From IMG/VR virus record IMGVR_UViG_3300005459_000006, positions 4,721-68,720 of that record: a stretch of 64,000 nucleotides of DNA; one strand, given 5' to 3'. How positions within the stretch are numbered: the stretch's first letter is position 1; each line of letters starts with the position of its first letter. The notes under the pieces were generated by a model. The model did no database searches. It was not told the DNA's origin and was given only the letters and a program-made list of their open reading frames with translations. Position numbers and translations under genes: made by a program. Positions 4,028 to 58,968 of the stretch are shown one piece after another. The stretch comes from a virus. Taxonomy: Duplodnaviria; Caudoviricetes.

Positions 4028-4642
4028 ATGCCCGGCCCGGCGACCCAGACGCTCATCCGGACGTATTCCGGGCTTGAGCTAGACGTGTGCCGTCTCGAGC
4101 CTGACTTAATCCGCATTGAAGACATAGCTCACGCTCTCGCCCTTTGTAATCGTTTCGCTGGTCACACCAAGCGACCGATTTCTGTCGCGCAGCACTCCGT
4201 CTATGCTGCGCGAATTGTTGCTGAGCTTCTTGCTAGAGGCCCAGACTCTGCCGTTAATCATCATAGTATTATTCGTCAGGCTCTTCTACATGACGCCGCA
4301 GAAGCGTATGTCGGTGACGTCACTAAGTGGCTGAAGCAGACCAAGATCTTCGAGAATTATCGTATTCTTGAAGATATCATACAAGCCAAGATCTACAGAA
4401 AGTTCGGCTGCCCTGTTGACCAACACGAATTCGTTAGCTACGCAGACCGCATCCTAGTCCTATTCGAGGGAAGGAAAGGGTTCGGTCCTGGATTTGTCAT
4501 TGACCATCCTGACTATCCCAATCTCAGCCAATCAGAAATCGATCTAATCGGGCCGTGGTCTCCGTGGTCCTGGAAGTCAGCCGAAGAACTCTTCCTTGTT
4601 CACTATCGAATGTATGCTGAGGTGATGGGTGCTGGAACTTAA
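4028..4642 (+). CDS. HD-domain phosphohydrolase (YfbR/5'-deoxynucleotidase-like)
   Basis: EDIAHALALCNRFAGH, SVAQHS, LLHDAAEAYVGD, YADRI. Confidence 0.9.
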   Translation: MPGPATQTLIRTYSGLELDVCRLEPDLIRIEDIAHALALCNRFAGHTKRPISVAQHSVYAARIVAELLARGPDSAVNHHSIIRQALLHDAAEAYVGDVTKWLKQTKIFENYRILEDIIQAKIYRKFGCPVDQHEFVSYADRILVLFEGRKGFGPGFVIDHPDYPNLSQSEIDLIGPWSPWSWKSAEELFLVHYRMYAEVMGAGT

Positions 4643-5492
4643 ATACGCCACCGGCTTCTTCGAGACAGCTCGTGAACGCTACAATATCAAGCTGAAGCGT
4701 GAAGCCGGTGAGCCACCTCCATGGACTACTGACAAGCAATTCCGTCAGTGGCGGTTCTGTCACGTTCACAGAGAGCACGACAAGACAACTCGGTGGTTCC
4801 GTGAGACTGTCCGTAAGCATCTGGACGAGCTCGCAGCCACTCGTGCGACCGTGGCCTTTCGATGGTTCAACCGAATCGAGACCGGGGAGCTCATTGTAGA
4901 TCTGCTGGTTGACAAGTGGGATTCCCAAGAAGCTGAACGCCGTCTCCGAGGAGTTGCTCCGATAGTCACCGGCGCCTACATCATCAAAGGCTATGATGGA
5001 TACCCAAAACTAGAGGGTGTCCTCAAGTGCATCGATGAGGCTTTTCCACGACTTCCTCCGATGGTTGAAAAGTGGAAGGCCAAACCCTCCCTCGAAGCCG
5101 CGTGGCGGGATCTCACGACCCTGAACTATCTGGGCGGTTTCATGGCCTATGAGATCGTCTCTGATCTGCGCTGGACACCGTTCTTATCAGTCGCGCCCGA
5201 TATACTCACATGGGCGAACGCTGGTCCCGGCTGTGCTCGAGGACTCAGCTGGACTGTGGATGGGCATGTCGGTCGCTTTGGCACTGGTCCCAGCGATCAG
5301 AGAACCATGCTCAGCCTGATGCGTGAGATTCTCGCCATGAGCCGGGACGAACAGTACTGGCCGCAGAAATGGCACACGTGGGAAATGAGGGAGGTAGAGC
5401 ACTGGATGTGCGAGTGGGACAAGTATTGTCGCGCTCGCAGCGGTGAGTCGATGAAACGAAAGTTCGTAGCTCCTCGGACAGCGTATGCTTGA
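4629..5492 (+). CDS. 5-hmdU DNA kinase family (formerly alpha-glutamyl/putrescinylthymine pyrophosphorylase clade 1)
   Basis: WTTDKQFRQWRFCHVHREHDKTT, FRWFN, GGFMAYEIVSDL, NAGPGCARGL, EVEHWMCEWDKY; lies next to a dUMP-modifying TS homolog. Confidence 0.8.
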   Translation: MLELKYATGFFETARERYNIKLKREAGEPPPWTTDKQFRQWRFCHVHREHDKTTRWFRETVRKHLDELAATRATVAFRWFNRIETGELIVDLLVDKWDSQEAERRLRGVAPIVTGAYIIKGYDGYPKLEGVLKCIDEAFPRLPPMVEKWKAKPSLEAAWRDLTTLNYLGGFMAYEIVSDLRWTPFLSVAPDILTWANAGPGCARGLSWTVDGHVGRFGTGPSDQRTMLSLMREILAMSRDEQYWPQKWHTWEMREVEHWMCEWDKYCRARSGESMKRKFVAPRTAYA

Positions 5493-6225
5493 TACGGTTA
5501 TCTGCATTCCGTCCCGTCGCAAGCCTCCGCTGAAGAGCTTGATGAGCTACCAGACTGCTCCATTCGAGGTGATTATCGTCGCAGACCCTGAGTTCGTAGG
5601 CATACACGAGCAGTTCTATCATGCTATCCGTAATATTACCGTAGTCGAGGGAGGTCGTGGAAACGGTCCTCAGTGTGCGGCGTGCTATCGTGCCGCAGCG
5701 AAGGCTGGATTCCCCTATTTCTTCAAGATGGATGACGACCTCTTACCGAAGACCTTTGTTGGGATGGACGGCTTTATCGATTTACCCATCGCAATTCGTG
5801 TCGCTCGTGAATGCTTAGATGTCACCAAGACCACTCATGCGGGCTTCTGCAATACCTCCCGAAGAGATTGGCTCGGTGATGGCTACGCCAGAACTTGGGG
5901 GCTAATCCATGGCGGAGGAAACATCGGAATCAGCGCCGAAGACCCCTCGCGTTTCATCGACGAACGACTTGTACGAGCGGAAGATGTATATCGAACATGC
6001 GCTCACCGCGAACTCGACGGTGCCGTCGGACGGGTCAAGTTTATCGGATTTGATAAGAAAGGGTCTGCTGATACCTCTGCGGATTCTAGCTCCAGAACGA
6101 TACGACAAGAAGACTTTGATCGAACCCGCGACATCGTCCTCCAACGGTTCTCCCGATACGTCAGTTGTGAAGGAACCAGAAAAGTCAACGGAATAGATAT
6201 ACCGAACTGGAAGATGAAGCGATAG
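5485..6225 (+). CDS. GT-A fold glycosyltransferase (TET-associated/JGT-like), copy 1
   Basis: ICIPSR N-terminal strand, KMDDDL metal motif, RAEDVY catalytic region. Confidence 0.7.
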   Translation: MLDTVICIPSRRKPPLKSLMSYQTAPFEVIIVADPEFVGIHEQFYHAIRNITVVEGGRGNGPQCAACYRAAAKAGFPYFFKMDDDLLPKTFVGMDGFIDLPIAIRVARECLDVTKTTHAGFCNTSRRDWLGDGYARTWGLIHGGGNIGISAEDPSRFIDERLVRAEDVYRTCAHRELDGAVGRVKFIGFDKKGSADTSADSSSRTIRQEDFDRTRDIVLQRFSRYVSCEGTRKVNGIDIPNWKMKR

Positions 6226-6236
6226 AGGTTATCATA

Positions 6237-7085
6237 ATGGATCTAACTGTGTTCATCCCAACTCGGGGACGCAGTTCAATGGAACATATCACGATCAATG
6301 AGATGAAGAAGTTTTCATCTCGCAAGCCCATCGTGGTTTGTCCATCCAAAGAAGCCTTCCACTACAAGAACTACGCCAATTCCGAGGTGATGGAATGCCC
6401 GCACGACGGGATTGGCCCGACTCGTCAGTTCATTCTGGAGAACAGTCCAACCCGCGGTGTCGTCATGCTCGACGACGACATGTATTTTTCCTACCGACCC
6501 ATCCCTACGCTTGGAGGAGCGGGCTGCTTGGAGCGAGTTACTGATATCGATCCAATGTTCCAATGGATTAGTGACCAGCTTGACTCGGGCTTCATGCACG
6601 GCGGTATTTCAGCACGACAGGGCAATCAGAACATCGAGCTTCAATCCGCCGATTGCATTCGGGTCAACAATGCTCACTTCTTCGATGCACAGGTCTATCG
6701 TAATCTCGGTCTCCGATTCGATGTCCTCCCCGTCATGGAAGATTTCTACGTTACGCTTTCACTTCTCTGTATGGGTTATCCAAATCGCGTGGCATACCAC
6801 TATTGTTGGAGTCAACGAGGCAGTGGTGCAAAGGGTGGATGCTCACTGTATCGAACTGCAGACCTCCAAGCGACCGCAGCCGAGCAGCTCCGTACTCTCT
6901 TTCCATCATACGTCAAAGTGGTCGAAAAAGAAAGTGACTCGCAGGTTGGCGTCATGGCGAAAAGAAAAGATGTCAACATCGCGTGGCTCGAGGCATGGAA
7001 GCGCGAGGGAATCCCTAACCACATCAAACTGACAGCATCCGACAACGGCTACAAGCCGGGGACTCCAGACTTGAGGAGACGATGA
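6237..7085 (+). CDS. GT-A fold glycosyltransferase (TET-associated/JGT-like), copy 2
   Basis: VFIPTRGR, GIGPTRQFIL, MLDDDM, MEDFYVTLSLL..G, GGCSLYR. Confidence 0.8.
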   Translation: MDLTVFIPTRGRSSMEHITINEMKKFSSRKPIVVCPSKEAFHYKNYANSEVMECPHDGIGPTRQFILENSPTRGVVMLDDDMYFSYRPIPTLGGAGCLERVTDIDPMFQWISDQLDSGFMHGGISARQGNQNIELQSADCIRVNNAHFFDAQVYRNLGLRFDVLPVMEDFYVTLSLLCMGYPNRVAYHYCWSQRGSGAKGGCSLYRTADLQATAAEQLRTLFPSYVKVVEKESDSQVGVMAKRKDVNIAWLEAWKREGIPNHIKLTASDNGYKPGTPDLRRR

Positions 7086-8182
7086 AAGTTCTTGAGGTTA
7101 GGAACGTCCACGAAGCTCTTCCTCGAGCCTTGCGCTTACTGCGACAGGAAGCTGTGTATCGCGAGAGTCGCAATGGACCGGTCTACGTGACGCCCTATCC
7201 AGTCACTACGGTCTACAACAGGCCATCCGAGCGAGTCATGCTCTGGCCTCAGCGGGATGCCAACCCCTTCTTCCACCTCTATGAATCGTTGTGGATGCTG
7301 GCAGGCCGCAACGATGTCGCTTCGCTCATCAAGTATGCGAAGCAGATGGCACAGTATTCGGACGACGGTAAGATCTTGCACGGTGCTTACGGGAAGCGAT
7401 GGCGCGATTGGTTCTCCCTTGGCTCTTCGAGGGACCAACTCCAAGTCATCGCCGAGCGCTTGACCAAAGATCCCAATGATCGTCGCTGTGTCCTACAGAT
7501 GTGGGACTCGGAGAAAGATCTTGGGAAGCCGTTCAAGGATGTGCCATGTAATACCATCACCACCTTCCAGAGAAATCTGGATGGGTCCTTGGACCTGACA
7601 ATCTTCTGCCGTTCCAATGACATCATCTGGGGTGCCTACGGAGCGAACGCAGTCCATTTCTCGATGCTCCTCGAATACATGGCAAATTGGATTGAATGTC
7701 CAGTGGGCCGTATGTATCAAGTGAGTACGAACTGGCACGCATACGCTGATATCTTGAAGGGCGTCATCAGTCTTGCCGAGATGATGGAATACAGTGGTTT
7801 CATCCATCAGCCATATCAAGAGGGATCTAAAGTTGATGTGACTGATTCCAGTACGATTGGCAAGAAGTACATCGAGACACCACGACTTCGGGTCTATCCC
7901 ATTCAAGGCACGATCAAAGAGGTGGACCGCAACATCGAGCTGATTTTGAAAGCTGCCGATGCGGATGGGATGGATGAAGCACTTCATTTCCGATATCGTT
8001 ATGCTGTTAACTGGTATGTGATGCTCCAAGCACATCAGGCATACCGCCAACGATCATCGGATGGAAGTCATTATCGTAAGGCGCTGGAATGCTTGGAGAC
8101 GGGCGACCAAGATTGTGACTGGATCGTCGCTGGCCAGGAATGGATGTCACGGCGGCTCAGCGCACATCTTGCCAAGGCATGA
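7082..8182 (+). CDS. thymidylate synthase family protein, probably dUMP hydroxymethylase
   Basis: NPFFHLYESLWMLAG, GAYGKRW, RRCVLQMWD, catalytic PCN, RSNDIIWGAYGAN (Asn at the dUMP-specificity position). Confidence 0.85.
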   Translation: MKVLEVRNVHEALPRALRLLRQEAVYRESRNGPVYVTPYPVTTVYNRPSERVMLWPQRDANPFFHLYESLWMLAGRNDVASLIKYAKQMAQYSDDGKILHGAYGKRWRDWFSLGSSRDQLQVIAERLTKDPNDRRCVLQMWDSEKDLGKPFKDVPCNTITTFQRNLDGSLDLTIFCRSNDIIWGAYGANAVHFSMLLEYMANWIECPVGRMYQVSTNWHAYADILKGVISLAEMMEYSGFIHQPYQEGSKVDVTDSSTIGKKYIETPRLRVYPIQGTIKEVDRNIELILKAADADGMDEALHFRYRYAVNWYVMLQAHQAYRQRSSDGSHYRKALECLETGDQDCDWIVAGQEWMSRRLSAHLAKA

Positions 8183-9451: not shown

Positions 9452-9547
9452 AACGATTCATTCTGTGGATTTACCGGAAGATTCAGCACTACAACTATGT
9501 CAGGGATTCGGATTACGTAAGTGTCCGTCCGGAGTGGAAAGAATATC

Positions 9548-9796
9548 ATGCCAAACGGTAGAAGCAAGGGCGTCATCATCACCTTGTTACCGAACCGCGG
9601 GTTTGGTTTCATTCGTGGGGATGATTCGATGACGCGATTCTTCCATGTGGATGATGTTACGAACCGCCGGGACTTCGACCTGATGCATGAGGGTCAGCAA
9701 GTCTCCTTCGTGCCGGTCGACATGGGCGAGAAGAATCCGGCAATGCAAAAGGGTAATGGACTAAGAGCGAGTAGCGTCGAACCTCTTCAATCATGA
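9548..9796 (+). CDS. cold-shock-domain (OB-fold) nucleic-acid-binding protein
   Basis: RNP-1 RGFGFI and RNP-2 FFHV motifs, plus QQVSF. Confidence 0.85.
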   Translation: MPNGRSKGVIITLLPNRGFGFIRGDDSMTRFFHVDDVTNRRDFDLMHEGQQVSFVPVDMGEKNPAMQKGNGLRASSVEPLQS

Positions 9797-17398: not shown

Positions 17399-17853
17399 TT
17401 CTCTTGATAGCAAGAATATGCGATTCACGATTTCGCCGTTGACCTCCCTCGACCCGCCTGCCGCATCCCGAGGTCCGCCTCCCTCGAACCGATGCCCAGA
17501 TGGACGATTGGACAGAATTCAAAAATGGAAAAGATTGGAAACGCGGATATCAACCGAACTTTAAGAGCGTCCAACGTTGAAACTCAGTGTAATAAAACGA
17601 TGCAGATTGCACAAAATTGCACACTTCTGCACATCTTACATATCTGTAATTAGAGGCCCTTGACCTTTCCTACGTTCCCTCGATTAGTTGGGAGGATGGG
17701 ATAGGAAGTCGGGGATTTCGGTGACCTCAATGCCCCAATATCGGGCAGGGCGATGTCGGGCTCCTATCCAATTGGCACGATCTATGCTAGGAGCCTCCCA
17801 CTTACAATATTGGTAGTTGCAAACGGTTTAAAACTGTGGTATCATGCTTTCCT

Positions 17854-18591
17854 ATGGCAATCGAAGCTGGTCAACGGTATACGGCAGGGCATAGCGGCTG
17901 CCGGAAGTTTCCCCTTCCGGTGCAAGTAGTGTGCCTGAACCCTGTCAAACCGTGGGTCACGGTCAGGGACGAGCTCGGCGTGCGAAGTGTACGACTTAGC
18001 ACGATGTTGCACTGCATTGCCCACGGTTGCATTGCGCTCCTGGATAGCAAGAATCGTGCCACCAATTCTTACAAAATTGGTGCTTGCAATCCAGCAAAAA
18101 CTGTGGTAGAATGCTCTCATGCTGGCGCACGGGACGCGTCGGCAAACAACGGCAGGCCAATAACGGCCGAAAAGGAGATTAGCATGGCGGAAAACAACGG
18201 CGTTCAGACCCTCACGTTCTACAAGAACCACAAGGGCATCTACAGCTCGTTCAGGCTCGCGGGCGTTCGCGGCTCGGTCAACATCACCAACAAGATGTTC
18301 GTCGACGGGGTCATCCCGCAGACCATCCAGGTCAGCGGCCTCGTGCCGGAGGGCAGCGGCGAGGTCCCGGCGGACGTCGACCGCGCGGCGGCAGCGGCGG
18401 CGAAGGCGCAGGAGCGCGCGGAAAAGGCCAAGGCGAAAGCCGAGGCGCGGGCGGCGAAGGCGCAGGCCATCGCCGACAAGGCCAAGGCAGCGGCCGAAGC
18501 GGCTCTGGCTCGGGCGGCCAAGGCGCAGGAGGCGGCAAGCAAGTCCGGTGCCACGTCCGGCGAGCAGACCGGCGAGACGGCGGGCATGTAG
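17854..18591 (+). CDS. possible N-terminally extended form of the Ala/Lys-rich protein, from a near-leaderless start
   Basis: ATG 8 nt after the -10 box at 17840-17845; frame stays open through the next promoter into the 18184 ORF. Confidence 0.3.
   Translation: MAIEAGQRYTAGHSGCRKFPLPVQVVCLNPVKPWVTVRDELGVRSVRLSTMLHCIAHGCIALLDSKNRATNSYKIGACNPAKTVVECSHAGARDASANNGRPITAEKEISMAENNGVQTLTFYKNHKGIYSSFRLAGVRGSVNITNKMFVDGVIPQTIQVSGLVPEGSGEVPADVDRAAAAAAKAQERAEKAKAKAEARAAKAQAIADKAKAAAEAALARAAKAQEAASKSGATSGEQTGETAGM
18184..18591 (+). CDS. Ala/Lys-rich helical-tail protein, paralog A
   Basis: AAGGAG RBS; N-terminal beta domain QTLTFYKNHKGIYSSFRL plus AAAAKAQERAEKAKAK tail. Confidence 0.85.
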   Translation: MAENNGVQTLTFYKNHKGIYSSFRLAGVRGSVNITNKMFVDGVIPQTIQVSGLVPEGSGEVPADVDRAAAAAAKAQERAEKAKAKAEARAAKAQAIADKAKAAAEAALARAAKAQEAASKSGATSGEQTGETAGM

Positions 18592-18601
18592 TTTGCAGGG
18601 A

Positions 18602-18627
18602 CCGGGCTGACCTTCGGGTTGGCCCGG
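18602..18627 (+). terminator. GC hairpin with C(UUCG)G loop after paralog A
   Basis: CCGGGCTGACC-TTCG-GGTTGGCCCGG. Confidence 0.6.
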
Positions 18628-18967
18628 TCCTTGCAGACGAGGATTTCGGGCACGGAGCTTGCAGGGACGGCCTGAGCGTATGCAAGTTCCGTGCCACTGA
18701 TTTCCGTTAGTCGCAAGGCGACTTCCTACGATCTTCGCGACGACCGCGAGGATGCGATGGGAGGTCGGGTTCTTCCCTCCTCGGATATTGGGGCTATCGG
18801 CTCCTGGACCTCGGCAAATCTGCACGATTCTGCACAGACCTGCACACATTCTAGCATCTTACAATTTTGGTACTTGCATTCTGGCGGGCACCGTGCTAGA
18901 ATGGTCTTACGTTGGGCGCACGGTTCGCGACCTAACAAACAAGCGGCAAGGCCGCTGAAAGGTGTGT

Positions 18968-19339
18968 ATGGATACCATTCTGCAGACGCTGACGTTCCAC
19001 AAGACCCACAAGGGCATCTACAGCTCGTTCCGCCTGCCCGGAAACCGCGGGTCGGTCAACATCACCAACAGCCTGTTCATCGGCGGCGTGGTCCCCGCCA
19101 CGATCCAGGTGTCCTGCCTTGTGCCGGAGGGCTTCGGGCAGGTGCCCGATGACGCGGAAAAGGCCGCCGTGGCGGCTGCGCGGGCACAGGAAAAGGCCGA
19201 CAAGGCGCGCGAGAAGGCCGAAGCGCGGGTGGCGCGCGCGAACGCCATCGCCGAGAAGGCGCAGGCGGCTGCGGCCGCTGCGCTCGCTCGGGCGCAGGCT
19301 GCGGCGGAGCGGGTCAGCGGCGACGAAGCTGGCGCGTAG
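18968..19339 (+). CDS. Ala/Lys-rich helical-tail protein, paralog B
   Basis: QTLTFHKTHKGIYSSFRL..RGSVNITN, clearly homologous to 18184-18591; followed by a similar hairpin. Confidence 0.85.
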   Translation: MDTILQTLTFHKTHKGIYSSFRLPGNRGSVNITNSLFIGGVVPATIQVSCLVPEGFGQVPDDAEKAAVAAARAQEKADKAREKAEARVARANAIAEKAQAAAAAALARAQAAAERVSGDEAGA

Positions 19340-19557
19340 TTTGCAAGGGACGGGTCAGCCTCCGGGCTGGCCCGTTTCCTACGTTCCTCGCCTGAGGTCG
19401 TAGGATGGGATAGAAATCACGATCATCGATACCACGGATACTAGGGCTATTGGCGATCCTCCTGCACAATCCTGCACAGAGAACTCCCGGATTACAAAGA
19501 TAGTAGTTGCATCCAGTTTAAAACTGTGGTATCATGCTCTTACATTGGAGGTGGGCA

Positions 19558-19884
19558 TTGAACGCGATTAACTTCATCGAGGCCATCAAGTCGGTTCGGA
19601 CGCTCGGTCACAACCGTTACGAGGTCCGTCAAGGCATCAACGGTCAGGTCATCCTCGAGCCGGTCCCGTCGGTTGGCCTGAAGGAGGCCAAGGACTTCAT
19701 CGAGGAGGTCATGGCGATGGGCGTCCGTCGTTATCTGCAAGAGCAGATCAACGACTCCGACCGGAAGCTGGCTGATCGCATCCGCGAGCGGGACTATCAG
19801 GCACGGCGGGAGCAGCAGTCGTCGGCTTTTATCTCGGCTGATGATGCGGCTCCGCATCGCTACGACGACGACATCAAGTTCTAG
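19558..19884 (+). CDS. hypothetical protein with a ribosomal L7/L12 C-terminal-like motif (VGLKEAKDFIE)
   Basis: GGAGG RBS then TTG start; motif similarity only. Confidence 0.55.
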   Translation: MNAINFIEAIKSVRTLGHNRYEVRQGINGQVILEPVPSVGLKEAKDFIEEVMAMGVRRYLQEQINDSDRKLADRIRERDYQARREQQSSAFISADDAAPHRYDDDIKF

Positions 19885-19955
19885 CAAGAATCGTGCCGGA
19901 TGCGATTACAATCTTTGTAGTTGCATCCGGCAGAATTCTGTGGTAGAATGTTCTC

Positions 19956-20063
19956 ATGGTTAAGCACTGCGCCGCCTGTCACGCCGAAACGGAATTCGTG
20001 GTTACGCCGAACGGGCTCCGGTGCCTGATCTGCAAACTGATGAGAATGAGGTGGATCCGATGA
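19956..20063 (+). CDS. 35-aa leaderless Zn-finger peptide (not in ORF track)
   Basis: ATG 6 nt after TAGAAT; MVKHCAACHAETEFVVTPNGLRCLICKLMRMRWIR. Confidence 0.6.
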   Translation: MVKHCAACHAETEFVVTPNGLRCLICKLMRMRWIR

Positions 20064-20260
20064 GTGATGACCGCTCGATCAAGATGCACTGCGACGAGGA
20101 GATGCGCTCGCAGATCGAGTTCTGTGTCCGTCGCTATCGCTGGGAGGTCGAGCGATGGATTGAGCGGAAGCGAGCTGCGGGGCAGCCGATTGGCGACCTC
20201 CAGCGTGAGCTCGAGCTCACCGACAAATGCCTGAAGGAGGCACAGGAGGCGGGGACCTAG
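20060..20260 (+). CDS. small helical hypothetical protein
   Basis: ATGA coupling and GAGGTGG RBS. Confidence 0.65.
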   Translation: MSDDRSIKMHCDEEMRSQIEFCVRRYRWEVERWIERKRAAGQPIGDLQRELELTDKCLKEAQEAGT

Positions 20261-20475
20261 CATGAAACATGCCATCGCCTACGGGCTGACGCTCCGGAAA
20301 GACGGAGTAATTTCTTAGATTCCCTCTGGGCGAGCTGAGGACTCGCCCAGAGGCGTCGTGCAATGAACTCCTCGATGCCCCAGTCCGCAAGGCTCTTTTC
20401 CTCTTCAATTACAAAATTAGTGGTTGCAAACCGTTTAAAACTGTGGTATAATGCTTTCATGATGAGGGAGGTCAA

Positions 20476-20814
20476 ATGGACGGACTCGTAACGGTGGAGG
20501 TCAAGCTGCGGGCGGTGATTCGGATCCCGCGCAACATCAACTTCCGGCTGAAGCAGGGCAACGACGCCACGTTCCAGCTCTGGGAGACAGACCTCGGGAA
20601 TCGGCTCGGGGGACAGGCGGTCGTCGACGAGGTGAACGAGGTCATCGCCCTCGCCGTGGGACAGCGAAATCACGCTCAGGGCGAGCGGGCCAACGAAACG
20701 CCTGTCGAGAACCTCGGCGACGTGACGCGCGAGACGCTGGCGGAGCATCTCGCCGACCGCGTGGTCGAGATGACGATCGCCGGTCGTCGCGGGCAGAAGC
20801 GGAGGAAGAAGTAG
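20476..20814 (+). CDS. hypothetical protein with basic C-terminus
   Basis: own promoter and GGAGG RBS. Confidence 0.75.
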   Translation: MDGLVTVEVKLRAVIRIPRNINFRLKQGNDATFQLWETDLGNRLGGQAVVDEVNEVIALAVGQRNHAQGERANETPVENLGDVTRETLAEHLADRVVEMTIAGRRGQKRRKK

Positions 20815-20885
20815 CACGAAATATGCCAGATGCAATTACAATCTTTGTAGTTGCATCTGGCGATGTTCTGTGGTAGAATGCTCTT

Positions 20886-21122
20886 ATGCCAAACAACGTT
20901 CCGACCGCACGCTTCAACATCGCCGTCGACGAATACGAACTCGAAATTGTTCGTCAGGCTCTTCGCGCCTACCGCAGCAAGCTCCTTGCTGAGCTCGATG
21001 AACTCATCGAAACGAGCAAGGACCTCTGCCCGACGGACAATCCGGAGAACAATCCGGACGTCTCGACGACTCGTGAATGGCTGGACCGTCTCGCTGTGCT
21101 TCGCGAGCGCGTCGCTGCCTAA
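20886..21122 (+). CDS. leaderless hypothetical protein
   Basis: ATG 6 nt after TAGAAT. Confidence 0.75.
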   Translation: MPNNVPTARFNIAVDEYELEIVRQALRAYRSKLLAELDELIETSKDLCPTDNPENNPDVSTTREWLDRLAVLRERVAA

Positions 21123-21317
21123 AGCAAGAATCGGGCCAGTTCTGCAAACGGACTGGCCCGACCTCTTTCCCTCTTCCTCGAGGGAGTCGGGAGGATTGGA
21201 CAGAAATCGGTCTGGGCGATTCTGGAAATGCCCCAATACGAACAACGAAATATGAACAACGAAAAACGAAACATGAAATGGCTTGCATTTCCCGGGAACC
21301 TGTGGTAGAATGCTCTT

Positions 21318-21533
21318 ATGCCGAAAACGAAACTCGTTTCATGGGTTGTGTACCACGTTCACGTCAAGATCAAGGCGGACACGAAGGAGCGCATCGAGGA
21401 GGTCGCCAAGAAGACTCGCCGGGACATCGGCTTCGATATTCGAGGCCGCGGCATTTGCTTGGAGGTGGAAGATGATTCGCTAATCGTCAATCTCGAGAAG
21501 ATCTGCGACGCCGAGGAAGTCCGGGTGGACTGA
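21318..21533 (+). CDS. leaderless hypothetical protein
   Basis: ATG 6 nt after TAGAAT. Confidence 0.75.
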   Translation: MPKTKLVSWVVYHVHVKIKADTKERIEEVAKKTRRDIGFDIRGRGICLEVEDDSLIVNLEKICDAEEVRVD

Positions 21534-21600
21534 ACACTTACAGAATTGGTAGTTGTCAATTACCACGTTCTGTGTTACAATGCTCTGCATGGAGGTCAGC

Positions 21601-21807
21601 ATGGCATACGTCAGGCCGAATTTCAAGTCGAAGAAAGAGCTGAAGGACGCGGTCGCCGCCGGTCGCACGGTCACGGTCTTCCAGCCTGGACTGGGCTCGG
21701 TTCCAGTCAACGGTGAGATTGACGTCGAGGGACCTCACTTCCCTCAGCCTCATCGTTGGTATGGATACGTGACGCTGGAGGCGGGTCGGGTCGTCAAGGT
21801 CCGCTAA
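21601..21807 (+). CDS. small phage protein (RPNFKSKKELKDAV...EGPHFP.PHRWY)
   Basis: GGAGG RBS and own promoter; motif recalled from small early phage proteins. Confidence 0.8.
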   Translation: MAYVRPNFKSKKELKDAVAAGRTVTVFQPGLGSVPVNGEIDVEGPHFPQPHRWYGYVTLEAGRVVKVR

Positions 21808-22228
21808 GGGACCGGAGTGAGGTTGGCCGAGCGCTGACCTCACTCTGCTCAGTTTTCGTTTTGATTGGAAATCGCCCGCAAATCCCGCCTTTAGAGCGCA
21901 TCACGATGGCTCCCCGGCTCAACTTGAGCCAGATCGTGCAATTCCGTCCGCCCATCCGTTAACGCCCATCGCCACCAATCCCGCCAGAACTCGCCAAAAG
22001 GGGATAGGAACGTCCAGCCGAAGTATGCCCGATACTCGGGGTATCGGTCCTATCCCATCCCCGATATGCAACGGTCGTGCCAGACCGTGTTCTACCAAAA
22101 TGTAACACGAAGTACGGAAATGGCACACTTTCCTTTACGGAAGTGCACATCGTTGCACGATTTCGCGCTGGCATCGGCCATGCACTCTTAGTCGGCGGCA
22201 ATTACGCCAGCTTCGAGGTAAAACTTAC

Positions 22229-22429
22229 ATGACCAAATTTGTTATCCAGGCGCATACCAACGGCACGAAGATTGCAATCCCCGCTCCGGGCCATACGGCC
22301 GAACGCGCCCTGCATAACGTGCGCCGGAACCGCTGGGTCCGCCACGCCGCCGTGCTTACCGTTTTTGAACGCAAAACCGGAAATTTGGTTTTGGCGGTCA
22401 ACGGTCCGCGCCGCGCGGCTTCCTACTAG
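22229..22429 (+). CDS. small basic hypothetical protein
   Basis: GAGGT RBS; sigma54-like motif at 22169 upstream. Confidence 0.55.
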   Translation: MTKFVIQAHTNGTKIAIPAPGHTAERALHNVRRNRWVRHAAVLTVFERKTGNLVLAVNGPRRAASY

Positions 22430-22437
22430 CAAAATCC

Positions 22438-22463
22438 GGGCCAGCCTTCGGGCTGGCCCTTTT
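22438..22463 (+). terminator. hairpin with C(UUCG)G loop and short U tract
   Basis: GGGCCAGCC-TTCG-GGCTGGCCC-TTTT. Confidence 0.7.
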
Positions 22464-22480
22464 CTGCAAGGGATGTACCA

Positions 22481-22738
22481 ATGACGAATAACCAATTTGA
22501 CATTTACGATACTGCCCTCCTCGAGATGGCATGTGATTTGTATCAGTCTATCGGCCACGACCTCCAGGCCGCGGCCGGTCTTGGCACGGAAGATGCATAC
22601 GTCGAGGATGAGGAAGTGGCATCCATCTTGCAGGACCGGATGCGCGATTATCTGCTGGAACATGGCACGAATCTTGTTCCGCTCTGGGATGCCCTGTCCG
22701 ACGACAAGCGCTTTCGCTTGTGCCTGATGGCACTATAG
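22481..22738 (+). CDS. acidic hypothetical protein
   Basis: AAGGGA upstream; 85 aa. Confidence 0.55.
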   Translation: MTNNQFDIYDTALLEMACDLYQSIGHDLQAAAGLGTEDAYVEDEEVASILQDRMRDYLLEHGTNLVPLWDALSDDKRFRLCLMAL

Positions 22739-22950
22739 GTTAGAATCCCGCTGGAAGTCGCCAAACGGCGATATCCAGTGGGTTGATTTTAAGCTGCAGA
22801 CTCGGGGTATCGGGTCCAGGCCATGCGCCGTTCCTGTCTGTGTTCACCCAAGATGTAACACAGGCGCCAGAATTGTACACAGCTCGTGCACGATCTTGCG
22901 CGGACCTGCACACTTCTATACGTGGCACGACCCATGCTTATCTATAGGGC

Positions 22951-23064
22951 ATGGCAAACAAGGCATCGACCAAAATCGTAATCACCCAGTATTACAAAAT
23001 CGGTAACGACATCTATGCTCCGATTCAGTACATCCCGCTTGTGCTGGTCGCTAGCAAGAACTAG
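22951..23064 (+). CDS. 37-aa peptide (not in ORF track)
   Basis: ATG about 2 nt after the start site predicted from the sigma54 motif at 22923. Confidence 0.35.
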   Translation: MANKASTKIVITQYYKIGNDIYAPIQYIPLVLVASKN

Positions 23065-23068
23065 GCCA

Positions 23069-23185
23069 ATGGCAAAATACACAATCGTAATGACGCGGTC
23101 CGAGTTTAGCAAAAAGCCTGCCAAAAAGCGTATCAAATCTATGCTCAAGGCAGGCGGCGGCGTCCGTGTAATTTTTACTCGGTAA
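23069..23185 (+). CDS. 38-aa basic peptide (not in ORF track)
   Basis: MAKYTIVMTRSEFSKKPAKKRIKSMLKAGGGVRVIFTR, starts 4 nt after the previous stop. Confidence 0.35.
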   Translation: MAKYTIVMTRSEFSKKPAKKRIKSMLKAGGGVRVIFTR

Positions 23186-23212
23186 ACACGTAACCCTAGC
23201 AAAGGATGTGCC

Positions 23213-23401
23213 ATGAAGGATACCATTATTGTAATCATCGTCTTGGCGTGCCTCTGGCTCGCTTCTTGCAGTTCGCCCGTCGCGCCTGCACACATCTGCA
23301 CGACCCAGCCGAGGGCATATGCCCTACCTGACGGAAGTGTAAGTATGGAGGTGGACACGTATGCAAGTCCCGTGCCGTGTCCTGCTGTGCCCATCCTGTA
23401 A
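23213..23401 (+). CDS. small lipoprotein
   Basis: MKD plus hydrophobic core plus lipobox LAS-C; AAGGA RBS. Confidence 0.6.
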   Translation: MKDTIIVIIVLACLWLASCSSPVAPAHICTTQPRAYALPDGSVSMEVDTYASPVPCPAVPIL

Positions 23402-23629
23402 CACATACGGTAAACCCTTGATACGCAATGGTTTACCGTGCTCCGTTTTGGTAGGCACGGGAACCAAAATGCAACATGGTCCTACACGAAGTAGCACAGG
23501 GTTGCACACCTCTACACATGGTACGGATGGTGCAGTAGTCAATGGCATGGCATACGGTAAACAGCATCCTAACCCACGCGTCCCTTACAAGGTTGTAAGT
23601 GCGCTCAAGCGCACAAAGGCAGGTAAATA

Positions 23630-23896
23630 ATGACTCTTGGCACCGTTCTTGCTCGTGGTTGGCAGGCTCCCTCCGGTTTGGCCGCATACCCGCAGGTCCC
23701 CGTTGGCACGGACATTGCAGCGGCTACCTACCGCTACAATGCCTCCTTGGCACGGTTCCTGCGGCTTACAGAAATGGCAGTGGCACGGCGCAGCAAGATT
23801 CGTGCCGCCCATCGCCGCTACCTGCGCCGCATTGGCATGCCTCTTGCTCCCCTGCCCAAGGGTAGCAAGTATCGTGCCAAGGGTCGTAAACCCTAG
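23630..23896 (+). CDS. basic hypothetical protein; may be secondary to the RpoN-motif array it overlaps
   Basis: ORF track; six sigma54-like motifs inside. Confidence 0.35.
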   Translation: MTLGTVLARGWQAPSGLAAYPQVPVGTDIAAATYRYNASLARFLRLTEMAVARRSKIRAAHRRYLRRIGMPLAPLPKGSKYRAKGRKP

Positions 23897-24242
23897 CACT
23901 AGCAAGGGCCGTGCCATCACCTCCGGTGGCACGGCTTATTTCCACGTACTAATTCTGTAATACATATCTGTAAGTACCATCCTGTAATTACAATCCTGTT
24001 CTTACAATTTCGTTCGGCGGGTTCCGGGTTTCGCGTCGCTCGTCCATCGCGCATCCCCAATCCCGCTCCCCAAATTGACTTCACCTATTCCCGGAAACCG
24101 AAACCCGCCAGCTAAATCACGGAATTCCCAACCCGCCTCCCAAAGCCAACCGGAACAGCCCTTGACATTATTATTCGCGCGGGCGCGAGCGCGTAGCAAG
24201 GAACATGCCAAGCACCGTTCACCGTGTAACTCTTACATGGGC

Positions 24243-24271
24243 TTGCAATCGAAGACGTCTTGTGGTATACT
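24243..24271 (+). promoter_or_regulatory. sigma70-type promoter upstream of the packaging genes
   Basis: TTGCAA-17 nt-TATACT preceded by TGTGG. Confidence 0.75.
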
Positions 24272-24492: not shown

Positions 24493-24906
24493 ATGACCAA
24501 CATTTTTGACGAGCACCTGCCTCCTCTTCCCTCGAAGGAGGAGTCCGCGACGGAGGAACGGTCACGTTCCAACAAGCGAGATGTGGAAGGGGTGGGAGTG
24601 CTCGCGCTGCGACGTGGGCAGATCCGGCTGCAAGAACTCAGTGGTGAGGCGTTTGATACTCTGCGGGAAGCTATGAGATTCGCGGAGTATCCGGTGGCTG
24701 TATCCGCGGCCAAGGCTGTGCTGGATCGGTCGGGGTTTGGGCCGACATCGACGCTCAAGATTCAGGAAGGCGATCTGGAAGAACTGTCGACTTCGGAGCT
24801 TGCCGCTCTGGCGATCAAGCTCGCTTCTCGTTTAGCACCAAATCATCAATCCGAATCGAACGTATCAGTTGAAACGCCGGGACCGACTCTGAAACGAGTC
24901 CATTAG
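24493..24906 (+). CDS. putative terminase small subunit
   Basis: helical protein directly upstream of TerL; AAKAVLDRSG motif typical of TerS-like proteins. Confidence 0.6.
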   Translation: MTNIFDEHLPPLPSKEESATEERSRSNKRDVEGVGVLALRRGQIRLQELSGEAFDTLREAMRFAEYPVAVSAAKAVLDRSGFGPTSTLKIQEGDLEELSTSELAALAIKLASRLAPNHQSESNVSVETPGPTLKRVH

Positions 24907-24993: not shown

Positions 24994-26487
24994 TTGCCGC
25001 CGGAAGATGCACTGATCTTAATCACAAGAGAACTGGAACGACGGCGATTTTTGGAACGGCCCGACGAGTGGGTACGGGAACGTCTGCGCGAACATATGTG
25101 GTCGTTCCAGAAACAAGTTATTCTGGCTGTGCAGCAGCATCGTTTGGTGCTGGTAAAGACTTGTCATGGGGTGGGCAAATCGTGGACGGCGGCTCGGACA
25201 GCCGGTCACTGGTTGGATGTTCATCCGCGGGGTAAGGCTTTCGTAGTGACGAGCGCTCCATCTGCGCCGCAGATCAAGGCGATTCTGTGGAGGGAGATCG
25301 GGCGGGTTCACGACATTGGAGGGCTAGACGGACGGGTCAATCAGTTGGAGTGGTACATGACGGTTGCGTCGGGGAGGGAGGAACTCGTCGCATTCGGTCG
25401 TAAACCTGATGACTATGATCCGGCGGCTTTTCAGGGTATCCATGCACGATTCGTTTTAGTCATCCTCGATGAGGCTAACGGGATTCGAGGAGCTTTGCAT
25501 GAAGCCGCGTCGTCGCTCATTGCGAACGACTATGGGCGCATGCTCATGATCGGGAATCCGGACGATCCTCAGGGGGAATACTTTGAAGCGTCGAAGCCAG
25601 GATCAGGATGGTTCGTCCTCCAAGTCGGGGCATTCGACTCGCCGAACTTTACGGGCGAAGAAATCCCAGCTGAGCTTCGGCATGACCTTATCGGCAGACT
25701 CTACGTTGAAGAGAAAAGGCGGAAATGGGCGCCGAAATGGGTCTGGGTTGACAAAGAAGGTCAGCCTTCGAGTCCTGAAGAAGGAGTTAGGGTAGTCCCA
25801 CCGGCAGACATCAGGCCAGAAGAGATCAATCCGTTCTGGTCGTCAAAAATACTCGGCGAATTCCCAGCCGTCTCCCTCGAGCAGTCCCTCATTCCTCTTT
25901 CCTGGATCCTTGCAGCTCAAAAACGGACTCTGATGAGGCGCGGAGGCGGCACCATCGGGTTAGACGTTGGGGCGGGCGGGGATGCATCGTGCGGAGCACA
26001 CAACGATTCGGGTGTTTGCCGGATTCTTTGGGAGGACAACAACCCTGACACGATGCAGACGTGTGGTAAGGCCGTGGAGGCGTTGCATGAAGTCGGGGCG
26101 GAGAAGGTTCATGTAGACGTAATCGGAATCGGTCGGGGAGTGGTGGATCGGGGGAAGGAACTTGGTGAGCCTTTCTTTGAAGTCAACGTTTCTGATGCAC
26201 CAGATGACCCGAAGCGATTCCTCAACCACCGATCCGAGATTTGGTGGGATGTACGGACTGCTTTTGAGCGTGGTCAGATCGATTTGGACCCTGAAGACGA
26301 GGATACTGCGGCGGAACTCGTTGAAATTAGGTATAAGAGGTCCTCCGTTGGCAAAATCCAGATTGAATCAAAGCAGGAGGCCAAAAATCGAGGTGTGAAG
26401 TCGCCGAATCGCGCAGAATCTATCATGCTGTCGTATGCGAAGATTCGGAAAAAGTATACTGAAGCAACATGGGGAGCTAAGAACTAA
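24994..26487 (+). CDS. terL: terminase large subunit
   Basis: Walker A HGVGKS, Walker B VILDEA, GNP, nuclease GLDVG and VDVIG, SPNRAES. Confidence 0.93.
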   Translation: MPPEDALILITRELERRRFLERPDEWVRERLREHMWSFQKQVILAVQQHRLVLVKTCHGVGKSWTAARTAGHWLDVHPRGKAFVVTSAPSAPQIKAILWREIGRVHDIGGLDGRVNQLEWYMTVASGREELVAFGRKPDDYDPAAFQGIHARFVLVILDEANGIRGALHEAASSLIANDYGRMLMIGNPDDPQGEYFEASKPGSGWFVLQVGAFDSPNFTGEEIPAELRHDLIGRLYVEEKRRKWAPKWVWVDKEGQPSSPEEGVRVVPPADIRPEEINPFWSSKILGEFPAVSLEQSLIPLSWILAAQKRTLMRRGGGTIGLDVGAGGDASCGAHNDSGVCRILWEDNNPDTMQTCGKAVEALHEVGAEKVHVDVIGIGRGVVDRGKELGEPFFEVNVSDAPDDPKRFLNHRSEIWWDVRTAFERGQIDLDPEDEDTAAELVEIRYKRSSVGKIQIESKQEAKNRGVKSPNRAESIMLSYAKIRKKYTEATWGAKN

Positions 26488-58403: not shown

Positions 58404-58838
58404 TCACCTTTGCCTCCTTTCATAGTATGCCAAAGCACATTCCAGGCAATGGCCCTTCGGCGTAACCCGTGGCCGGTCCGGATGACACCGTGCCATTGGC
58501 TGATTCACCGGCGCGAGCTCCTCCCTCGATTGCGGCCTGTCCCGCAGGTTGAGCTCCGCTGAGACGTTGAAGGTCTCGAGGGACTTCAGCATTATCGGGT
58601 TGTTCTTGGAAGTGAAGGCCATCTGTGCATGTGGCCCTTTCCGCTGCTCCGATAATATCTTTTCCGTCCCCGGCCCTGTGTAGAGTTCCGGTGCTGTCTT
58701 GTGGTGCCACAGCATGACGCCACGAATTCGCTCGACGTCTCCTGCTGCCTCGATGCAGGCAACGCACCATTTTTCTTCTGGCGCTGCGGCCATCCGGGCG
58801 GCGCTTAGCGGTTGTCCACAGTTCTCGCAGGTCCTCAT
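58404..58838 (-). CDS. TraR/DksA-like C4 zinc-finger protein with C-terminal extension
   Basis: CENCGQPLSAARMAAAPEEKWCVAC matches the C4 TraR/DksA pattern. Confidence 0.65.
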   Translation of the reverse strand: MRTCENCGQPLSAARMAAAPEEKWCVACIEAAGDVERIRGVMLWHHKTAPELYTGPGTEKILSEQRKGPHAQMAFTSKNNPIMLKSLETFNVSAELNLRDRPQSREELAPVNQPMARCHPDRPRVTPKGHCLECALAYYERRQR

Positions 58839-58848
58839 ACTTGGAACC

Positions 58849-58968
58849 ATTCTACCACAAGACGGGCCGGATTGCAACAATTATTTTAAACTTCAATGCT
58901 GTCGGATGCAGTGAACTAAAAACTTTTTGTTGTATTCACCAACGTCTTGTGGTATACTTGCTCTACGT
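58849..58968. promoter_or_regulatory. divergent sigma70-type promoters
   Basis: minus strand TTGCAA(58877)-17 nt-TAGAAT(58854); plus strand extended -10 TGTGGTATACT ending at 58968. Confidence 0.75.

Follow-up and report, generated by a model that had tools for sequence, protein, structure and literature searches.

Seven sites matching the sigma-54 (RpoN) promoter consensus are written into and directly behind a small gene of an uncultured tailed phage, and comparison with its relatives indicates that these DNA sites are kept by a selection of their own, added to the selection on the encoded protein, within the clade that bears them. The gene lies in IMG/VR record IMGVR_UViG_3300005459_000006, of which we analyzed positions 4,721 to 68,720, that is 64 kilobases (kb) of a 68.7-kb linear viral contig with an estimated completeness of 85%; this whole stretch is called the window and all coordinates refer to it. 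The gene encodes a basic protein of 88 amino acids (aa), and its sites are the densest node of an array of about 30 sites extending over 6.5 kb (17.8–24.2 kb), which belongs to a single clade of uncultured phages from soil and rhizosphere. We favor, at somewhat better than even chances, the reading that the sites were overwritten on a real small gene and are read by the host sigma-54 holoenzyme as a control layer.

A hit was defined as a match to at least 10 of the 12 specified positions of TGGCACG-N4-TTGCW, with the GG and GC doublets fixed. The gene and its seven hits are the following:

23630 to 23896, plus strand: gene of the 88-aa basic protein
23638 to 23653, plus strand (sense): site 1, TGGCACCGTTCTTGCT, 11 of 12 positions, encodes LGTVLA
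23704 to 23719, plus strand (sense): site 2, TGGCACGGACATTGCA, 12 of 12, encodes VGTDIA
23748 to 23763, plus strand (sense): site 3, TGGCACGGTTCCTGCG, 10 of 12, encodes LARFLR; weaker -12 element
23792 to 23807, minus strand (antisense): site 4, CGGCACGAATCTTGCT, 11 of 12, over the codons AGC AAG ATT CGT GCC (SKIRA)
23833 to 23848, plus strand (sense): site 5, TGGCATGCCTCTTGCT, 11 of 12, encodes IGMPLA; faces site 6
23864 to 23879, minus strand (antisense): site 6, TGGCACGATACTTGCT, 12 of 12, over the codons AGC AAG TAT CGT GCC (SKYRA)
23901 to 23916, minus strand: site 7, TGGCACGGCCCTTGCT, 12 of 12, 5 nucleotides (nt) past the stop codon; its -24 half doubles as the left arm of a terminator stem

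Six of the seven sites lie within the open reading frame (ORF) and site 7 outside it, after the stop. Neighboring sites are 31–66 base pairs (bp) apart, and the pairs 3/4 and 5/6 face each other with their predicted transcription starts crossing. A chance origin of the seven motifs is excluded: against 7 hits in 287 bp, 100 dinucleotide-preserving shuffles gave a mean of 0.08 and a maximum of 2. An earlier sequence-only reading had listed these seven RpoN motifs, four of them as perfect, and had taken the peptides LGTVLA, VGTDIA, LARFLR and IGMPLA for translations of the motif; all seven are present, four are exact copies of TGGCAC-N5-TTGC, and the four peptides are indeed those of the plus-strand sites. 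The array is densest in this ORF (24 hits per kb, compared to 4.8 per kb in the array as a whole) and is not confined to it, being clade-specific and 6.5 kb long.

Between 17.7 and 24.3 kb the rule gives 32 hits (15 on the plus and 17 on the minus strand) where 0.56 are expected, and the remaining 57 kb give 4 against 3.7, which is chance level. The window has 9 copies of exact TGGCAC-N5-TTGC where 0.13 are expected, all of them within 18047–23916. GGCAC and TTGC are paired at a spacing of 5 only, with 15 cases compared to 0–1 at each other spacing from 0 to 15, and the same holds in six related loci. The GG and GC doublets of the sites lie 10 bp apart, as the -24 and -12 elements of sigma-54 require, and the consensus is matched at each of its specified positions, the G behind CAC and the W behind GC among them. 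A sequence logo of 117 sites from seven loci holds information in the 16-bp consensus only and none in the flanks; this logo is partly circular, its hits having been picked by the consensus, whereas the spacing test is unbiased and not circular. The array keeps to the regulatory region of small genes directly ahead of the packaging genes, about 10% of the genome, and stops about 580 bp ahead of the gene similar to TerS. Terminase pac/cos repeats and replication iterons were rejected as candidates for the motif on account of this end point, its spread over 6.5 kb and its occurrence on both strands. The stop codons of several other genes of the region are likewise followed by GCAA, a GTGCC arm, a loop and a GGCAC arm.

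Related loci (designated L001 onwards) allowed us to follow the sites through the clade. Ten array-clade loci carry 3.6–16.6 hits per kb compared to about 0.1–0.2 expected (eight loci shuffled); the following counts are out of ten array-clade lineages, window included. Site 4 (residue 55, minus strand) is found in nine lineages, site 7 (at or just after the stop, minus) in nine, site 6 (residue 79, minus) in seven, site 5 (residue 68, plus) in six, site 3 (residue 40, plus) in four, and sites 1 and 2 (residues 3 and 25, plus) in three (window, L001, L007), and four of the seven sites are recent gains of one sub-lineage. Site 4 is missing from all four array-free homologues. Sites also turn over: L018 and L019 carry them elsewhere in the gene, and a 66-aa gene at 22229–22429 and its L001 homologue have them in different places. 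The densest relative, L019 (1024 bp, logan SRR29078262), has 17 sigma-54-like sites in 1 kb, about one per 60 bp, on both strands.

In a codon alignment of eight sequences, in which synonymous sites are near saturation (synonymous divergence, dS, of about 1 or above), sites 4 and 6 have invariant codons exactly where the motif needs them (Fisher's exact test). Arginine is CGT in 16 of 16 cases at these sites and in 18 of 73 elsewhere in the gene (p = 1e-8), alanine is GCC in 13/13 against 27/104 (p = 2e-7) and serine is AGC in 14/14 against 3/14 (p = 3e-5), and the N4 spacers of both sites vary while the motif codons stay the same. When the protein of the window was resampled with synonymous codons at the phage codon usage (5000 trials), a mean of 1.0 site and a maximum of 4 were obtained, compared to the 6 observed. 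This mean is well above the 0.08 of shuffled DNA, which suggests that the amino-acid sequence, too, was bent towards the motif, most plausibly in the poorly conserved N-terminal half (sites 1–3).

The alignments equally indicate that the 88-aa ORF is a genuine conserved gene. Ten homologues with 98–47% identity were found, and an exhaustive profile search extended the family to 19 representative clusters of 66–88 aa, all metagenomic. The annotated frame (+0) is the sole one open in all eight codon-aligned homologues, and the ratio of nonsynonymous to synonymous divergence (dN/dS) outside the motif columns is 0.04–0.45 for most pairs, with dS about 1 or more. Residues outside the motifs (A60, H61, R62, L65, R66, P71, P74, L75, G85, R86; stretches AAHRRYLRR, PLP and KGR) are kept and their codons vary freely. 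Synteny with TerS/TerL is preserved, the gene being the last before both in L001 and L007. Four distant homologues (L016, L020, L021, L022) sit in contigs with 0–0.2 motif hits per kb and write the equivalent xLRAA in different codons (AGG GCG, CGA GCC, CGG ACG and CGG GCC), which makes the protein independent of the motifs. The proposal of the sequence-only reading that selection acts on the DNA was thus borne out by the fixed CGT, GCC and AGC codons of sites 4 and 6 and by the resampling (1.0 versus 6), and its view of the ORF as incidental or secondary had to be given up in the face of the single open frame, the dN/dS values, the conserved residues and the motif-free homologues. It had named, as speaking against its proposal, a conserved protein with homologues lacking the motifs, together with an absence of RpoN binding; the former is what the four distant homologues present.

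The 88-aa product has no Pfam match, no PHROG match and no significant sequence match in the PDB, where a profile search gave only unrelated chains (spectrin, a double-stranded RNA-binding domain, dsRBD) with a best E of 0.04 or worse. Its AlphaFold2 (AF2) model is all-helical and of low confidence (predicted local distance difference test score of 65). Two candidate identities were discarded. A mimic of the RpoN box, to which ARRSKIRAAHRRYLRRIGMP bears some likeness by eye (ARRTVAKYRE...IP), returned no sigma-54 chain in the PDB profile search up to E 10 and no Pfam Sigma54_DBD, and for a dsRBD-like fold the TARBP2 match was weak (E 0.28) and the AF2 model all-helical and of low confidence. 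In one near-identical relative, P0004 (116 aa), the upstream frame (equal to 23361–23630) is joined to the last two-thirds of the 88-aa protein, probably by a frameshift or as an assembly variant.

Upstream and downstream of the gene there are three further elements:

23503 to 23534, plus strand: likely operon promoter module, with TGCAC (23503) and TACAC (23513) boxes 10 bp apart and a sense sigma-54-like site TGGTACGGATGGTGCA at 23519 to 23534
23547 to 23630, plus strand: unannotated tiny ORF of 27 aa (MAYGKQHP...), with a stop codon that overlaps the start codon of the 88-aa gene (TAATG)
23906 to 23937, plus strand: terminator-like hairpin with a 13-bp stem GCCGTGCCA / TGGCACGGC followed by TTATTT (RNA fold of -25.1 kcal/mol, z = -4.4)

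All ten array-clade loci have a sense site 55–111 nt 5' of the gene, scoring at least 10/12 in nine and 9/12 in L004. Their -12 element is weaker (xTGCW), and 8–10 nt upstream of them lie direct repeats of TGCAC, which are found at none of the seven array sites; with one exception, the sites bearing such repeats are in sense orientation. In six of the ten (window, L001, L007, L006, L018, L019) an ORF starting MAYGKQ[YH]P begins 13–14 nt after the GC of the sense site, and L015 has the MAYGKQ ORF without a sense site at that distance. Outside the window the tiny ORF is located at L001 4099, L007 407, L006 481, L018 412, L019 505 and L015 1030; it recurs in diverged relatives as MAYGKQ[YH]P.P..., with 24–33 aa in five of seven loci and a lysine-rich tail. 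Sigma-54 promoters start transcription about 12 nt downstream of the GC, so that 13–14 nt to the ATG fits; with the C of GC taken as -12, the ATG of the tiny ORF falls at +2/+3 of the upstream module (this does not concern the seven array sites). The ATG of the tiny ORF lies 14 nt after this GC in the window, and the mRNA would thus be leaderless. This fixed distance is the best indirect sign that RNA polymerase may read the motif, and the sites of this subclass look like true promoters. At the other end, the -12 half of site 7 follows the stop codon and its -24 half forms the left arm of the hairpin; hairpins with GTGCCA/TGGCAC or GGCCA/TGGCC arms follow the gene also in L001, L007, L005, L006, L004 and L009 (recognized by eye, unfolded).

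Other promoter-like elements occupy the same region. Between 17800 and 21600 there are about nine modules of sigma-70 type (TTACAA, about 10 nt, TTGCA, 17 nt, TGnTAGAAT), each directly 5' of a small plus-strand gene and resembling duplicates of each other; in three of them a minus-strand sigma-54-like site overlaps the stop codon of the preceding gene and lies 22 nt upstream of the -35 element. In the 22–24 kb block their place is taken by a second class, in which two to three TGCAC direct repeats with a period of 10–11 bp precede a sigma-54-like site in sense orientation, its -12 element being weak, and an ATG stands 13–14 nt after the GC in leaderless geometry; this class is found at 22169–22184, 22923–22951 and 23503–23547 of the window and at L001 3026 and 4071, L005 1802, L006 453 and L015 701. 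CTGTAA(T) direct repeats with a period of 10–11 bp occur at 17630–17650 and at 23952–24010, the latter between the terminator of the 88-aa gene and a sigma-70-like promoter (24243–24271) that heads the packaging operon, and also after the gene in L001 and L007. TTACAA/TTGTAA is enriched 13.5-fold in the region, and the CTGTAA(T) repeats may be sites of another regulator.

The 88-aa gene is the final gene ahead of the packaging genes, which follow directly on the small-gene region:

24493 to 24906: TerS-like gene
24994 to 26487: TerL, followed by the portal protein and the structural and lysis genes

The small genes of about 17.8–24.3 kb are ORFans, as are most early genes, and lie 3' of a plus-strand replication and nucleotide module with a family A polymerase, an HD hydrolase, a 5-hydroxymethyldeoxyuridine (5-hmdU) DNA kinase, a TAGT-like glycosyltransferase, a thymidylate-synthase homologue, an SNF2 helicase and a primase/VapE protein. 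The HD hydrolase, kinase, glycosyltransferase and synthase homologue form a thymidine hypermodification cluster (4028–8182), and the TTGC elements may carry modified T residues in the virion. Further genes include one with a cold-shock domain (9521–9796; Pfam CSD, E 2e-7), one on the minus strand (58404–58880) with a weak DksA/TraR-type zinc-finger match under the curated cut-off, which could encode an RNA-polymerase-binding protein, and a paralogous early pair (18186–18591 and 18968–19339) whose products share a conserved domain at the N terminus (LTF.K.HKGIYSSFRL...) and a tail rich in Ala, Lys and Glu. Pfam gave no integrase, repressor or helix-turn-helix (HTH) protein in the window and the first 4.8 kb of the contig, no sigma factor was found in the phage record, Sigma54_DBD, Sigma54_CBD and the Sigma54_activat ATPase are absent from the 68.7-kb record, and the window has no tRNA or Rfam element. 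No DNA match to cultured phages was obtained; TerL, portal and PolA are at most 40% identical to their counterparts in cultured phages of many phyla, and PolA is about 25% identical to that of any cultured phage. Near-identical contigs were found in Miscanthus and other rhizosphere metagenomes. Neither the 88-aa protein nor its family alignment, nor TerL or a promoter word, retrieved close relatives from IMG/VR, a search of GTDB genomes with the family alignment gave no match, and a search of the ESM Atlas for the host with the tail-operon glycosyltransferase gave viral clusters only.

We regard the host sigma-54 holoenzyme as the predicted reader of the sites because of the identity of the motif, the promoter-like subclass, the lack of a phage sigma-54 or activator and the precedent of phage YuA; the host would have to supply both sigma-54 and its activator. 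The sense sites with TGCAC boxes, a weaker -12 element and the conserved ATG at +2/+3 would be true promoters, one of them driving the operon of the 88-aa gene. With a spacing of only 31–66 bp and two facing pairs whose starts cross, the seven sites cannot all be promoters; together with the recent addition of four of them, this leads us to read the consensus-strength sites without TGCAC boxes, which lie in genes, at stops and in terminator stems, as sites that would hold the scarce holoenzyme on this region in closed complexes. The three deeply conserved 3'-end sites (4, 6 and 7) point backwards and, once fired by an activator, would send antisense transcription into the gene. The net effect may be a sigma-54-dependent control over the step from early to late expression.

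Several points weigh against this reading. The nearest cultured relatives of TerL (about 35% identity) include phages of Actinobacteria, a phylum without sigma-54, and, with no Sigma54_activat or sigma-54 domain in the 85% complete record, an activator has to be assumed. The TGCAC boxes abut the -24 element, only 8–10 nt away; typical enhancers lie 80–150 bp upstream. The seven sites cannot all fire, and it is also unlikely that all of them hold holoenzyme at once. Finally, the thymidine of the phage DNA is probably hypermodified, as the 5-hmdU kinase cluster suggests, which may bear on the TTGC element.

An alternative that we consider unlikely, and yet the strongest of the competing explanations, is that none of the sites is a promoter and that they act as a pure decoy, which would draw the roughly 100 sigma-54 molecules of the host, free or bound to core enzyme, onto phage DNA as it replicates, switch off the host sigma-54 regulon and shift core polymerase to the sigma-70 promoters of the phage. 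The unbiased orientation (15 plus, 17 minus), the density of up to 16.6 per kb in L019, the turnover of many sites among lineages with density kept, the finding that the best consensus matches are those without TGCAC boxes and the lack of an encoded activator all agree with a sponge, an idea already raised for intragenic sigma-54 sites (PMC4591121). However, a sponge would not need three sites to hold position and orientation over deep divergence, nor a sense subclass with promoter geometry; it could sit anywhere, whereas the array takes up only 10% of the genome, and held holoenzyme would also tie up core enzyme. Quite unlikely in our judgment is that the 16-mer is a look-alike of a sigma-54 site, namely the operator of a DNA-binding protein encoded by the phage or another one of the host, used in the manner of stoperators. 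Its position at stop codons and gene boundaries would suit an operator, the host might lack sigma-54 (the actinobacterial phages among the TerL relatives were mentioned), any of the many early ORFans could encode a binder, and the TGCAC and CTGTAA repeat families mark the region as full of other protein-binding motifs. Against it, all 12 positions and the exact spacing fit the sigma-54 consensus with nothing conserved beyond, Pfam gave no repressor, HTH protein or integrase, the distance to the conserved ATG suits a transcription start rather than an operator, and the 88-aa family, occurring also in array-free phages, is unlikely to be the dedicated binder.

The inverted copies of the motif could instead have been selected for RNA structure, with sense/antisense pairing in the mRNA controlling stability or translation. 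The transcript 23620–23950 does fold at -145 kcal/mol (z = -3.8), site 1 pairing with site 6 and site 4 with site 5; but L005, L004 and L015 keep minus-strand sites without plus-strand partners, the sequence is conserved and not covarying, the spacers form internal loops, and the motif is enriched also in intergenic DNA and over 6.5 kb, which makes this explanation highly improbable. Even harder to maintain, to the point of being nearly negligible, is the view that the sites are a by-product of repeated peptides (SKxRA, xGTxxA) or base composition and do nothing as DNA. Short peptides do recur in the protein, which is basic; nevertheless synonymous codons are fixed exactly at the motif positions, codon resampling gives 1.0 site against 6 observed, shuffling gives 0.08 hits, and array-free homologues use other codons for xLRAA.

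Sigma-54 is usually viewed as a host regulator of stress and nitrogen responses. The soil phage lineage described here keeps dozens of consensus sites in one region at the cost of constrained codons, and probably amino acids, of its own genes, which provides measurable evidence, at the level of sequence comparison, that host-factor binding to phage DNA may itself be strongly selected. It is a clean natural case of overlapping coding for a protein and for DNA sites, in which the array-bearing and array-free clades of the same gene are built-in controls, and it opens to direct test the question whether "silent" sigma-54 sites are decoys or promoters. More tentatively, and with the odds against it, the whole array could be a DNA-based device for capturing the host sigma factor, with up to one consensus site per 60 bp and the phage's own genes recoded for it, that would strip holoenzyme from the host chromosome, silence the host regulon and feed the few true phage promoters. 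If true, this would be a virus-encoded sigma-factor sponge made of DNA and written over protein-coding sequence.

To our knowledge, YuA/M6 is the only cultured phage group that uses sigma-54, by way of three ordinary promoters; in the library searched, no paper on arrays of sigma-54 sites in phages was found. For YuA, the annotation of NC_010116 and the account of Ceyssens et al. (2008) as relayed in PMC10914365 give three experimentally active -24/-12 promoters. YuA and the present phage are both tailed, have a thymidylate-synthase-like enzyme and a family A polymerase, and use, or would use, the sigma-54 of the host without a sigma-54 or activator of their own; they are not close relatives, as the PolA identity of about 25% to any cultured phage indicates. 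The promoters of YuA are three isolated ones in the structural region with no array, whereas here about 30 sites occupy 6.5 kb on both strands, many of them intragenic; scanned by the same rule, the 50 kb of YuA give 5 hits of at least 10/12, which is chance level.

The stoperators of cluster A mycobacteriophages (the gp71 sites of L5) are asymmetric sites of 13–16 bp at gene boundaries that block transcription when bound by repressor. They resemble the present array in being many copies of an asymmetric site at phage gene boundaries that act, or here would act, by protein binding and not as promoters. They differ in depending on a phage repressor, in being spread over the whole genome and in having one orientation with respect to transcription; the array here has the sigma-54 promoter consensus as its motif and is on both strands of one region, in a phage with no repressor gene by Pfam.

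Phage proteins that act on the sigma-54 holoenzyme are known, such as P7 of Xp10 (PMC5053324) and Ocr of T7 (PMC7064336). The common trait is a phage strategy that touches sigma-54-dependent transcription, but P7 and Ocr are protein inhibitors of RNA polymerase, whereas here the agent would be DNA sites. Closest in the nature of the sites is the chromosome of Escherichia coli, with 135 mapped sigma-54 sites genome-wide, 62% of them intragenic, many conserved and most silent (Bonocora et al., 2015, PMC4591121). At intragenic sites of E. coli and Salmonella the holoenzyme is mostly transcriptionally inactive, and some sites drive mRNAs of downstream genes (PMC4591121). The phage sites share with these the placing of consensus sites in coding sequence and a conservation beyond the needs of the protein, seen here in the fixed codons of sites 4 and 6 and in the resampling. 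The sites of E. coli, however, are mostly single and sense-biased, whereas those of the phage have no sense bias, are stacked in one small gene and reach in the array about 100 times the density found on the E. coli chromosome.

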